Of a DNA stretch of 21,881 nucleotides, positions 6,955 through 10,461 are shown piece after piece; the stretch's first letter is position 1, and each line of letters opens with the position of its first letter. The position numbers were made by a program, and so were the translations under genes. The notes under the pieces were generated by a model. That model saw only the letters and a program-made list of their open reading frames with translations. It did no database searches and was not told the DNA's origin. Location: positions 1 through 21,881 of the IMG/VR virus record IMGVR_UViG_2671180357_000006; one strand, 5' to 3'. This stretch comes from a virus (lineage: Duplodnaviria > Heunggongvirae > Uroviricota > Caudoviricetes).

Positions 6955-9900
6955 TTACTTATTTATCGTCTCCGCAATATCAGTCAGAATGGCCTCCAGT
7001 CGCTCTCCTTCTTCCGGTCGGAAGTAAAGGATATTCGGGTTAAATCCGTAGAAAACGGTCGCATCCAGCTCCGGCAGATACTCTTTGCGTCCAACCAGGT
7101 CGGATGGTTTGCTCTTGTTGTTGAAGAGCGACGTCGCCCGGCTGCCACACGTCAGCACATAGGTCGGACGCACCAGATTTATCTCTTCACGCATAAAGTC
7201 GGTGAACTGGCCGATCTCGTCTTTGGTGTAGTCCTTCTCTTTGTCCTTCACCTTTTTGCACACGCCTGTGACGTAGAGATCGCCCATGCGCAGATCGCCT
7301 GCAGTAAGCAACTTCGCCTTAAAGTCGTCGTAGCCGTTCTCCATGAAGTAGCCGGTACGCCCATCATTGCCGTTCGCGTTGTCCAGAATGACCATGATTT
7401 TCGGCTTAATGCCAATGCTTGGGCGGATCAGGTCGTCTCCCAGACCCATTTCGGCCGCCATGCGAGTCATCAGTACATTCACCTCGGCAGAGCGCTTAGG
7501 GTTCATCTCGAACGGTCGAGAGGCTTTTACAGCGTCGATCACCAGATTGCCCATCAACTCTGCCTGGTCGCGCAGTCGTTCCGGATCTGTCGCTGGCAGA
7601 CTGCCAGACTCAATCGATGCGAACGCACCGACTTTTTGCAGCGACTCGCGTACCCGGCTGTTACATGCACGCTTCTCGACCGCTTCCTCAAATTGCGCCA
7701 GTGATTCGAATTTGCCGCCAACTTTCTCACGCGCTCTCATGATGGCCTGGCAACCATTCTCAGAGCAGCCTTTCACAGCAGAGAATGGTGCATACAGAAC
7801 CTGACTGCCGTCTTCCAGCGTGCGGATCTCAATTCGGTTAGATGACACGTTAACGTCTGGTGGCAATACGCGAATGCCATAGGTCAGCGCATCTTTAACC
7901 AGCCCCTGGTGCTTATCCTCGCCCAGAATGGTGAGCGCAGCAGCGAAGAACTCAGCAGGGTAATGTGTCTTTAACCACATAGACTGATAGCTGATTAAAG
8001 AATAAGCAACACTGTGTGATTTGTTGAAGGCATATCCACCGAACTTCTCAAAGGCGTCCCATATTTCTTGGGCTTTTTTCTTACTGAGACCTTCTTGTTC
8101 AGAGACGATCTCCACGTAGTCTATGCCGTCACTAATAGCCTCGCTGTAGCTTCTACGCTTACCGTCTGAGCAATCCAGTTTTGCGTGTTTGTGAACCTCT
8201 ACAGTACCTCCATTTTTGAGTGACAGTGTCACCCAGCCTGCTTGTGCTCGTTCTACAAAATCGCTGCCGATCGCTTTCATCTTATCCATGTTCTTTTTAC
8301 CGATAGCGGAACGCAGAGCGTCTGCTTCGGCCATAGAGAACCCGGCAAGTACTCGGGAACTTTGCATGATTTGTTCCTGATAGAGCAAAACACCATTAGT
8401 CTCCCGGGTGACTTCCTCAAGACGCGGATGAATTGAATGTGGAGCCATGAAGCCTTTGGCCACGGAGACATAGTCGTCCAACATGCCGGATTGGATCGGG
8501 CCAGGTCGGAAGAGTGCGGTCGTGGCGACAACGGTTTTGAAGCTCATTGGCTCAATGCCACCGCCCAGATCTTTAAGCAGCTTGCGCATGGGGCCGGACT
8601 CCAGCTGGAATACGCCCTGCGTGTACCCTGCAGCGAACCCATCCAGAACCTTACGATCGTCCAGTGGAATAGCATCGAGATTGATGTCTTCCCCGGTACT
8701 CTCTTTGATGTAGCGTTTCGCGCTATCCAGCAGATCGAGCGTTGCCAGACCGAGAACGTCCAGCTTAATCAGCCCCATCGCCTCGCAGTAACGTTTATCG
8801 AACGCAATACAGCGAGCGTTGCCACGCAGCTCGACGGGCGTGCGCTCTACCAGTGGAACGCCAGCGACGATCATCCCCGCAGCGTGACGACCAAAACCAC
8901 GCATCAGGCTTTGCAGCTTACACGCCGCTTTGAACGCTTCCGGGTTTTTCGTGGCGTATTTGTCCAGGCTGGCCAGTTGCTCGCGCAGCTCTTCCAGAGA
9001 CAGGCTATCGTCTTCCAGATTCTTGAACTCTTTGGATACCGCCATATCCGCAGCGTCGACACCGTAAATACGCGCAGTGTCTCGCAGCGCAGAAGCGGCG
9101 CCCAGATAGGTGAAGTTTGGAATACCGGCAACGTAATCTTCGCCATAGCGTTCATTCAGATACTCGATCACCTCATGACGACGTGCCTGGCTGAAGTCCA
9201 GATCCGCATCCGGTAAGTCAAGACGTTCAGGGTTGATGAAACGCTCAAACAGAAGACCGTGACGGATAGGATCGACGTTGGTTATGCCTATGCACCACGC
9301 CACCAGAGAACCGGCAGAGGAACCACGACCTGGCCCAACCGGTATTCCTGTTTCACGGCAGTGATTCATCAGATCGCGTACCATCAGGAAGTAGCCACAG
9401 AAGCCCAGACGGGTCAGTGTGTCCATTTCGTACTTCAGTCGCTCAACATACACTCGGTGCTCAGAAGCCGGTGGTGTGTAGCCAAACTCTTTAGTAGTTA
9501 GACGCTTGCGTAGCCCCGCGACAGCCAGCTTCATCAGCGTTGCAGGCTCGTCGTCTGCCATCTTGGGCAGTGCTGGTGGCAGTTCATGCCAGCGCCATGT
9601 GCAGGCTTCAATAATGGTGTCCTGCGTTGTTGAGACCATTGCAGCTGTTACCGGTACGCCCATGCGAACGGAGAAGGCTTTCAGCGCTTCAAGGAGATGG
9701 CGACGACCATTAACAGCGTTATCTCGCTGGTGGGGGATGCGCAGACGATGCGGCTGGTCGATTTTGATGTTGTTCGTAACCATGTGCGCAATGTCTTTAA
9801 TGTCAGCGTCGTCGATCGCTTCGTAATAAGCGGGATAGAACGCCACTGGCTCTATTTTCAGTGCGCTCGCCACTTTCATCGCCCGGACGTTAATCTGGTC

Positions 9901-10461
9901 GTAGAATGGGGTAGGGTGCGGATAAACCACGCTGTAGAAGTTATCGCGTCCTCCAGCTGTCACCAGCGTCCCGATAATCTTTGCGAAGTCCCGGCGCTGG
10001 AATACACTGCCAATGTCGGACGTCAGCAGGATGATGTTGCCTTTGGCATATGCGGCCGCCAGCTGGTCAAGTGCCAGACGCGGAACAAAGTAGAATTGCT
10101 CGCGCTTGTTGGCTAAGGTCATCAGTTCGCACACGTCGCGATAACCTTGCTCATTCTTTATCAGTGCCGTGAAGCAGTAGCTTCGATCACGCACCAATGA
10201 TTCCATACATCCTCCTGACTCTTTCGCCAGGCGGGCGCGATGCTCGTATGTCGGATCGTCGACCACATTCAGCTTAACACCACAAATAACCGCCATGTCG
10301 TCGCCAGCGGCACGCTGCAGGGGGATCACACTGGCAATGTTCATGCTGTCAGCGGAAATGACAGCGGTGTAGCCAGCGTCTCTCGCGATTTTCACCGCGT
10401 TTTCTGCTTTTAGAGCTGACTCTCCCAGGGAGAAGTCAGTTCTGACCATCAGAGCCTTCAT
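6955..10461 (-). CDS. DNA polymerase III alpha-type (DnaE family, C-family polymerase), 1168 aa, with a non-canonical C-terminal domain
   Basis: Strong DnaE motifs: GYFLMVRDLM...GIPVGPGRGSSAGSLVAWCIGITNVDP...LLFERFINPERLDLPDADLDF (palm with catalytic aspartates), FRPGP, LLYQEQIMQ, KFGGYAFNKSHSVAYSLISYQSMWLKTHYPAEF. The N-terminal PHP-like region lacks the His pairs. Confidence 0.92.
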   Translation of the reverse strand: MKALMVRTDFSLGESALKAENAVKIARDAGYTAVISADSMNIASVIPLQRAAGDDMAVICGVKLNVVDDPTYEHRARLAKESGGCMESLVRDRSYCFTALIKNEQGYRDVCELMTLANKREQFYFVPRLALDQLAAAYAKGNIILLTSDIGSVFQRRDFAKIIGTLVTAGGRDNFYSVVYPHPTPFYDQINVRAMKVASALKIEPVAFYPAYYEAIDDADIKDIAHMVTNNIKIDQPHRLRIPHQRDNAVNGRRHLLEALKAFSVRMGVPVTAAMVSTTQDTIIEACTWRWHELPPALPKMADDEPATLMKLAVAGLRKRLTTKEFGYTPPASEHRVYVERLKYEMDTLTRLGFCGYFLMVRDLMNHCRETGIPVGPGRGSSAGSLVAWCIGITNVDPIRHGLLFERFINPERLDLPDADLDFSQARRHEVIEYLNERYGEDYVAGIPNFTYLGAASALRDTARIYGVDAADMAVSKEFKNLEDDSLSLEELREQLASLDKYATKNPEAFKAACKLQSLMRGFGRHAAGMIVAGVPLVERTPVELRGNARCIAFDKRYCEAMGLIKLDVLGLATLDLLDSAKRYIKESTGEDINLDAIPLDDRKVLDGFAAGYTQGVFQLESGPMRKLLKDLGGGIEPMSFKTVVATTALFRPGPIQSGMLDDYVSVAKGFMAPHSIHPRLEEVTRETNGVLLYQEQIMQSSRVLAGFSMAEADALRSAIGKKNMDKMKAIGSDFVERAQAGWVTLSLKNGGTVEVHKHAKLDCSDGKRRSYSEAISDGIDYVEIVSEQEGLSKKKAQEIWDAFEKFGGYAFNKSHSVAYSLISYQSMWLKTHYPAEFFAAALTILGEDKHQGLVKDALTYGIRVLPPDVNVSSNRIEIRTLEDGSQVLYAPFSAVKGCSENGCQAIMRAREKVGGKFESLAQFEEAVEKRACNSRVRESLQKVGAFASIESGSLPATDPERLRDQAELMGNLVIDAVKASRPFEMNPKRSAEVNVLMTRMAAEMGLGDDLIRPSIGIKPKIMVILDNANGNDGRTGYFMENGYDDFKAKLLTAGDLRMGDLYVTGVCKKVKDKEKDYTKDEIGQFTDFMREEINLVRPTYVLTCGSRATSLFNNKSKPSDLVGRKEYLPELDATVFYGFNPNILYFRPEEGERLEAILTDIAETINK
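6958..7404 (-). other. C-terminal ~150-aa domain of the DnaE-like protein resembling a family-4 uracil-DNA glycosylase fold with degenerate catalytic motifs
   Basis: IMVILDNANGNDGRTGYF...LYVTGVCKK...INLVRPTYVLTCGSRAT...VFYGFNPNILYFRP aligns by eye with family-4 UDG (LVLVGEGPGEEEDKTGRPF...VYITNIVKCRPP...IVPLGAVAA...FPMFHPAYLLRNP); GEGPG is replaced by DNANG and HP by NP. It sits where bacterial DnaE has its OB-fold and tau-binding region. Confidence 0.55.

Follow-up and report, generated by a model that had tools for sequence, protein, structure and literature searches.

Uracil-DNA glycosylase (UDG) domains have been described as parts of several viral replicases. The UDG domain of the SPO1/T5 PolA has been proposed to be an intrinsic processivity factor, and in vaccinia virus D4-A20 is the processivity factor of the polymerase (PMC3201878). 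In the cryo-EM structures, the UDG domain of an SP15-like polymerase and mpox E4 contact the 5' template ahead of the active site (bioRxiv 10.1101/2025.03.26.645540), and the inactive UDG domain of the N4-like polymerases is put forward as a 'processivity module' in the passages of PMC10201439 that deal with it. [quoted passage not shown] The subject here is the dnaE gene of IMGVR_UViG_2671180357_000006, a stretch of tailed-phage DNA of 21,881 nucleotides (positions 1 to 21,881 of that IMG/VR record; the whole stretch is referred to as the window), which encodes a polymerase of this kind.

The window protein is almost certainly a DnaE-type polymerase ending in a family-4 UDG fold. The architecture is already known, and the protein is a member of the variant described in 2014. 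Architecture and lineage are identical to those of DnaEX: the C-terminal domain is 96.2% identical to that of the Y. pestis pFra dnaE and 95% identical to that on an S. enterica plasmid, both proteins are carried on pMT1/pHCM2/SSU5-type replicons, and nothing structural differs. A first-pass annotation of the window, made from the sequence alone, had taken the fusion of such a domain to a C-family polymerase to be undescribed, which the 2014 report and the pFra copy contradict. That report covers the variant in a single sentence and one panel of a figure, with nothing on a phage link, loss of catalytic residues, selection or distribution (PMC3919608). No paper on the catalytic residues, phage origin, spread or function of the DnaE-UDG variant was found in the literature covered, which is incomplete; the 2025 preprint on UDG-PolA (bioRxiv 10.1101/2025.03.26.645540) contains neither 'C-family' nor 'DnaE', and the UDG passages of Czernecki 2023 (PMC10201439) make no mention of C-family fusions. 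What is new is that the domain appears catalytically stripped across the whole family, is conserved as strongly as the polymerase core and is common. The gene and the parts of its product are placed in the window as follows.

6955 to 10461, minus strand: dnaE, encoding a C-family (DnaE-type) DNA polymerase of 1168 residues (open reading frame, Pfam, full-length match to phrog_405).
6958 to 7509, minus strand: domain of family-4 UDG fold, residues ~985-1168, apparently catalytically stripped (profile, Pfam/TIGR, AlphaFold2/Foldseek).
7543 to 7578, minus strand: conserved linker motif R962-L-R-D-Q966-A-E-L-M-G-N-L973 (RLRDQAELMGNL; family alignment).
7609 to 7878, minus strand: (HhH)2 duplex-DNA-binding domain, residues 862-951 (PF14579 HHH_6, E=2e-16).
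8092 to 8235, minus strand: beta-rich insertion in the fingers, residues 743-790 (AlphaFold2 strands).
8242 to 9537, minus strand: Pol3 core (palm/thumb, residues 309-571; PF07733, E=7e-73) and fingers (residues 574-740; PF17657, E=2e-46).
9592 to 10461, minus strand: PHP domain, about residues 1-290 (PF02811 over residues 6-156, E=9e-12).

When the window sequence is searched alone, family-4 UDGs take the first four places among its PDB matches (TM0511, S. tokodaii and T. thermophilus; E=0.017-0.34), and the curated models match below their cut-offs, Pfam UDG (PF03167) matching the C-terminus alone with E=0.0015 (19.1 bits, cut-off 24.3 bits) and TIGR00758 (UDG_fam4) with E=2e-8 (34.1 bits, cut-off 125.3 bits). 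A word-indexed homologue search with the C-terminus gave near-identical fragments only, and the distant relatives needed an exhaustive phmmer scan of 1.84 billion representative proteins, which at E<=1e-3 yielded 137 clusters at 50% identity; single-sequence phmmer reaches genuine family-4 UDGs with GEAPG and HPS motifs at E~1e-4. A domain profile built from 40 aligned relatives matches 4zbx (S. tokodaii) with E=5e-20, TM0511 with 2e-17, 1ui0 with 1e-15 and UdgX with ~2e-11, and 39 of the 40 individually match Pfam UDG, the best with 5.5e-15. The AlphaFold2 model of residues 1010-1168, calculated from the alignment of 40 relatives, has a predicted local distance difference test score (pLDDT) of 95.8 and a predicted template modelling score (pTM) of 0.90. 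When this model was compared with the PDB using Foldseek, ranks 1-36 were all family-4 UDGs or UdgX (template modelling (TM) score 0.78-0.87, E~1e-10), followed by TDG/MUG, with TM scores of 0.80-0.87 against 4zby, 1ui1 and 1l9g; against viral models it matched phage UDGs and UDG-PolA fusions, that of SP-15 included. The domain therefore has the alpha/beta fold of the cellular family-4 UDGs (Tth UDGA 1ui0, TM0511 1l9g, S. tokodaii 4zbx) and of UdgX, together with profile-level homology to them. The fold starts at about residue 985 and includes an N-terminal helix (988-1005), so that it takes up the last ~185 residues and not, as first annotated, the last ~150 from about residue 1020; the full-length model aligns with family-4 UDGs over 183-193 columns with a target TM score of 0.77-0.79. 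The domain descends from a family-4 UDG. It stands in place of the OB and tau-binding domains, as had been proposed at first pass, and the profile search and structure prediction suggested there as checks gave the UDG fold and no OB or tau-binding domain.

The remainder of the protein is a DnaE-type core, again in agreement with the first-pass annotation. The Pfam matches occur in the DnaE-type order of PHP, Pol3 core, fingers and (HhH)2, and TIGR00594 gives 646 bits against a cut-off of 434. The full-length AlphaFold2 model of the 1168-residue protein (pLDDT 90, pTM 0.84) aligns with DnaE structures starting at the N-terminus, its best PDB match being Taq Pol III alpha (2hpi, E=8e-60, Foldseek), with Pol III alpha of E. 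coli and of Mtb also matching. P417-D-A-D-L-D-F423 and K566-L-D568 are present, with D418, D420, D422, K566 and D568 invariant among 38 full-length relatives, and the catalytic Asp set (D420, D422 and D568) is intact. These palm aspartates are equivalent to D401, D403 and D555 of E. coli. With E. coli-type DnaE1 (Pol III alpha) the protein has in common the PHP, Pol3 core, fingers and (HhH)2 domains and the catalytic Asp set, with 28-30% identity to the solved structures, whereas it lacks the OB fold, the tau-binding CTD and the canonical QADMF at the aligned place, and has the 743-790 insertion. The similarity to E. coli alpha extends to E. coli residue 891. DnaE1 equivalog models give 691 bits against a cut-off of 1002, the matching ending at residue ~741-951, and in the Pfam scan there was no match to the OB fold and the tau-binding CTD that follow one another in DnaE1. 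Only about 35 residues separate (HhH)2 from the start of the first UDG helix, and AlphaFold2 predicts that they form one helix (960-969) plus coil. A remnant OB fold in this position was ruled out, as there is space only for this helix and coil and no Pfam OB match.

In UdgX and the family-4 UDGs, N91 and H178 hydrogen-bond the uracil and E52 activates the nucleophile (PMC10359453). The segments of the window protein that align with the motifs of the uracil pocket are the following.

7372 to 7386, minus strand: motif A equivalent L1026-D-N-A-N1030, opposite GE(A/G)PG (HMMER alignment to 4zbx/TM0511).
7246 to 7275, minus strand: Y1063-V-T-G-V-C-K-K-V-K1072, opposite F-I-T-N-V-V-K-C-R-P (profile alignment).
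7033 to 7047, minus strand: motif B equivalent G1139-F-N-P-N1143, opposite (Y)HPS, with the His replaced by N1141 (alignments).

At motif A, M-V-I-L-D-N-A-N pairs with M-F-V-G-E-A-P-G in the HMMER alignment, placing D1027 opposite the Glu and A1029 opposite the Pro. The first-pass annotation was correct in seeing a degenerate motif here but off by one in its register, and its pairing of DNANG with GEGPG was dropped for that of LDNAN with GEAPG. Counted over 105 relatives, the consensus of this motif is x-D-x-P-x, with Asp in 92 and Pro in 77 of them, the window having Ala in place of the Pro. The Asn of T-N-V-V-K-C-R-P-P that contacts the uracil is G1066 in the window and is present in none of the 105, which have Ala, Gly, Ser or Thr instead, and the Phe of G-R-P-F-V-G that would stack on the base is M1040, with Leu, Met or Gly across the relatives. 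At motif B, where the change from HP to NP noted at first pass is indeed found as N1141-P1142, the position of the His is Asn in 61 relatives, Ser in 26, Thr in 12 and His in 3, two of these three being true stand-alone UDGs. The positions of Fe-S cysteines are A1002, K1070 (the Cys of T-N-V-V-K-C-R-P-P) and F1086 in the window, and hold Cys in 42, 8 and 45 of the 105, respectively. The alignment to 4zbx marks these as positions of 4Fe-4S ligands. Compared with the cellular family-4 UDGs, the domain is thus without GE(A/G)PG, the HPS motif with its His that contacts uracil O2, the uracil-contacting Asn and the four Fe-S cysteines; it scores below the curated cut-offs, is not a stand-alone protein and has an acidic isoelectric point (pI). 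To judge from these residues, the uracil pocket is dismantled family-wide. Because the Asn, the His, the stacking Phe and the Fe-S cysteines are lost and only the Asp at the position of the motif A Glu is kept, the domain is very probably inactive as a uracil glycosylase, in line with the non-catalytic role that the first-pass annotation had read from the degenerate motifs, and the state of the pocket argues against uracil sensing as well.

Loss of the pocket residues is accompanied by strong conservation of the domain. The ratio of nonsynonymous to synonymous substitution rates (dN/dS) of the domain is 0.014-0.065 when the window is compared with Escherichia phage Cyrano, Y. pestis pFra and a Klebsiella plasmid, equal to or below that of the polymerase core, showing that it is under strong purifying selection and is a functional part of the enzyme. 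Among the 38 full-length relatives, which are about 35% identical, Y1063, E1093, P1099 and G1106 are invariant and T1065, K1069, K1072, G1124 and P1142 nearly so; Y1063, T1065, K1069 and K1072 are also invariant or nearly so across the 105. In the comparison with pFra the polymerase core (8242-9537) has an unusually high dN/dS of 0.26, the PHP, linker and UDG-like parts having values of 0.04-0.07, which points to a segment inside the core that is mosaic or recombinant, or to a variable insertion there.

The motif in the linker joining the (HhH)2 and UDG-like domains is among the best-conserved positions of the whole protein. Its family consensus is R-x-x-D-Q-x-E-L-[ML]-P-G-[LVI], with Q966 conserved in 36, R962 in 35, P971 in 31 and L969 in 30 of the 38 relatives. 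It is predicted to be helical and ordered (pLDDT about 90) in the full-length model, where the order of the linker (pLDDT 86-91), with the pTM of 0.84, suggests a fixed placement of the UDG-like domain on the polymerase. The motif resembles the pentapeptide that binds the beta clamp (QL[SD]LF; QADMF in E. coli alpha), the internal clamp motif of the E. coli protein being 920-QADMF-924 (cited in PMC3201878). It could be a candidate clamp-binding-like site for the clamp of the host or a relic of the helix preceding the OB domain. When the linker sequence was compared directly with the solved DnaE chains, all matches were at chance level.

The first-pass annotation had put forward a sensor of DNA or uracil, or a protein-interaction module, as possible roles. 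By analogy with the UDG-containing replicases, the UDG-like domain may be a non-catalytic DNA-handling module that substitutes for the lost OB domain. By keeping the template or other DNA beside the polymerase, it would help a phage replisome without an annotated clamp or clamp loader to remain on the DNA. A DNA-handling role taken by itself falls somewhat short of an even chance; the explanation as a whole, from the identity of the domain through to this mechanism, is evenly balanced between right and wrong. More tentative still is the specific proposal that the dead UDG domain is a dedicated processivity module gripping the template or DNA, with which a C-family polymerase would work without OB domain, tau or clamp loader in a manner convergent with the A and B families.

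There is a likeness to the N4-like A-family polymerases, in which, according to the passages of PMC10201439 on these domains, a family-4 UDG fold is likewise carried on a phage replicative polymerase with its catalytic residues replaced. There, however, the polymerase belongs to the A family and the UDG domain is N-terminal, between the exonuclease and polymerase domains, and is without a helix and a beta-hairpin, whereas the window protein is a C-family polymerase whose UDG-like domain lies at the C-terminus, after (HhH)2, and keeps the whole fold. The SPO1-like and SP15-like UDG-PolA proteins and poxvirus D4/E4 with its B-family polymerase resemble the window protein in having a UDG-fold module physically tied to the replicase, but their UDGs have catalytic activity, in mpox the module forms a subunit of its own and the polymerases are of families A and B. 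The window protein is accordingly not a UDG-PolA of the N4-, SPO1- or SP15-like type, with which only the principle of the fusion is common. If the proposed role is correct, viral replicases of all three major families, A (N4-, SPO1- and SP15-like), B (poxvirus D4/E4) and C, would each have acquired a UDG-fold module independently, and a simple DnaE independent of a clamp loader would be available for biochemical study.

Several observations weigh against a DNA-handling role. The absence of a clamp and clamp loader from the genome of Cyrano holds at the level of annotation only; the beta clamp of the host is available, and Q966-x-E-L-M could be a site for binding it. The Asp at the position of the motif A Glu is strictly kept (92 of 105), and the N-P of motif B resembles that of the active MUG/TDG enzymes, so that some chemistry is conceivable. 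The domain of the window is acidic, with a pI of 5.0 and a net charge of -4, and the median pI of the family is 6.75, an acidic to neutral composition that is unlike a non-specific DNA-binding clamp. A basic surface acting as a non-specific DNA clamp was considered and is unsupported by this composition.

The main rival is that the UDG-like domain is a protein-docking module which takes over the function of the tau-binding CTD and links the polymerase, rather than to DNA, to the helicase, primase, single-stranded DNA-binding protein (SSB) or epsilon-like exonuclease of the phage. The domain sits where DnaE1 carries its tau-binding domain (PMC3919608), the phage encodes its own DnaB-like helicase, primase, gp32-like SSB and exonuclease, and poxvirus D4 acts via a protein partner, A20 (PMC3201878). 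The acidic to neutral composition would suit such a role, as would the conservation in the family of P1115-K1116-G1117, G1124, Y1128 and D1133, which are without counterpart in the family-4 UDGs. The best-conserved positions, however, namely Y1063, T1065, K1069 and K1072 and the D1027 and N/S-P1142 loops, line the former DNA/uracil face, and since they do so it would seem that this face is still in use. Docking is, on this evidence, an unlikely explanation, with a real minority claim.

A role as an enzyme or base sensor, either as a glycosylase with non-canonical residues (Asp in motif A and, as in MUG/TDG, Asn in motif B) or as a detector that scans the template for uracil or modified bases ahead of synthesis, is improbable. 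The purifying selection is compatible with catalysis, the retained Asp and the motif A Pro (77 of 105) could be read in the same way, and the active UDG domains of the SPO1-like and SP15-like PolA fusions excise deoxyuridine ahead of the polymerase. Against this, the uracil-bonding Asn is found in none of the relatives and the His in only three, two of them stand-alone UDGs; the stacking position is Leu, Met or Gly, the window lacks the motif A Pro, and the Fe-S ligands have been lost. Apart from ThyX, DHFR and RNR, nothing belonging to a pathway for base modification was noticed in the annotated relative. That the domain is a functionless relic, a UDG decaying after an old fusion, as its degenerate catalytic motifs and its scores under the curated family cut-offs might suggest, is hardly credible and is rejected because of its dN/dS of 0.014-0.065, and is contradicted too by the very confident predicted fold (pLDDT 95.8), by several invariant positions among relatives at about 25-35% identity and by the fact that polymerases encoded by two separate genes still keep the domain.

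The UDG-like domain is ancient and widespread. A survey of homologues, proposed in the first-pass annotation, found the same fusion: 42 of the 137 clusters are full-length DnaE with the domain at the extreme C-terminus. About eight clusters at the weak end of the set are true family-4 UDGs, stand-alone proteins that have CxxC, GEAPG-like and HP motifs. Cultured carriers are the SSU5-like phages, the Pseudomonas phages nickie, Nican01, phiK7B1 and ZY21, and the Rhizobium RHEph10 group, all with genomes of about 105-117 kb, and the domain is found across many metagenomic lineages as well. In PLSDB it is present on 970 plasmids, among them 346 of Klebsiella, 219 of Escherichia, 137 of Acinetobacter, 91 of Enterobacter, 63 of Yersinia (with pFra/pMT1 of Y. 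pestis) and 49 of Salmonella (with the pHCM2 type of S. enterica). In those phage-plasmids that spread resistance genes, it might serve as a specific target. The GenBank note for the RHEph10 DnaE mentions 'uracil-DNA glycosylase-like'.

Split DnaE-UDG polymerases are common, since 26 of the 137 clusters are Met-initiated C-terminal halves of about 390 residues that start at one point, equivalent to window residues 783-810. In the A. baumannii plasmid pWP8-W18-ESBL-11_1 (2219-6462) the polymerase is encoded by two genes, of 785 and 421 residues, with a NUMOD4 homing-endonuclease gene between them; the halves align with window residues 3-778 and 789-1167, putting the split at the equivalent of about 8092-8127 in the window, and the second half is named 'uracil-DNA glycosylase family protein' by PGAP. 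The beta-rich insertion of ~48 residues in the fingers, with predicted strands at 743-748, 753-757, 761-763, 769-771 and 782-789, lies directly upstream of the point where the gene of the relatives splits; it is in the Acinetobacter version too, but not in the majority consensus of the relatives. In the SSU5 records (JQ965645 and NC_018843, 46620-50135) the match to dnaE is in two pieces within a feature annotated 'DNA polymerase III alpha subunit | hypothetical protein', and in several plasmid records the UDG-like end is annotated as a separate hypothetical protein. These cases may be frameshifts, insertions or annotation splits.

Positions 1-18006 of the window are 99.5% identical to the E. 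coli plasmid pBL12EC-1 (IncFIB, 106 kb), and over the dnaE region the identity is 95% to Salmonella phage SSU5 and 88% to Cyrano; because of these identities the window is assigned, on sequence, as part of an SSU5/pHCM2/pMT1-type phage-plasmid. The dnaE gene lies within a replication-recombination block that comprises CobT/CobS-like VWA and MoxR ATPases, DnaE, a small DNA-binding protein, a UvsY-like gene, a gp32-like SSB, a 5'-3' exonuclease and an intein-containing RecA. The order CobT-CobS-DnaE-SSB-FEN-RecA is common to the enterobacterial SSU5-like elements and to Pseudomonas and Rhizobium phages (checked in nickie and RHEph10), and that of MoxR/CobS-like ATPase, DnaE and FEN recurs in the Acinetobacter plasmid examined. 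Cyrano, the fully annotated relative, has its own helicase, primase, ligase, epsilon exonuclease, gp32-like SSB, FEN and RNase H.

In the window the genes for the CobS-like MoxR AAA+ ATPase and the CobT-like VWA protein (10642-14275, minus strand) directly adjoin dnaE. The RecA gene (1076-3415, minus strand) is interrupted by an intein with a LAGLIDADG homing endonuclease (Pfam RecA, Intein_splicing and LAGLIDADG_3), and the whole product of 779 residues is named 'LAGLIDADG family homing endonuclease' in RefSeq. The SSU5-like backbone stops at ~18006 and is followed by the end of a Tn3-family, TnAs1/Tn1721-like transposon (~18000-21881), which pBL12EC-1, the closest relative of the backbone, does not have at the corresponding site. 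This end carries a gene for a PAS-domain methyl-accepting chemotaxis protein (18196-19773), a recombinase and a transposase, reaches 65% GC around 20-21 kb and is 99.9% identical to thousands of plasmids.

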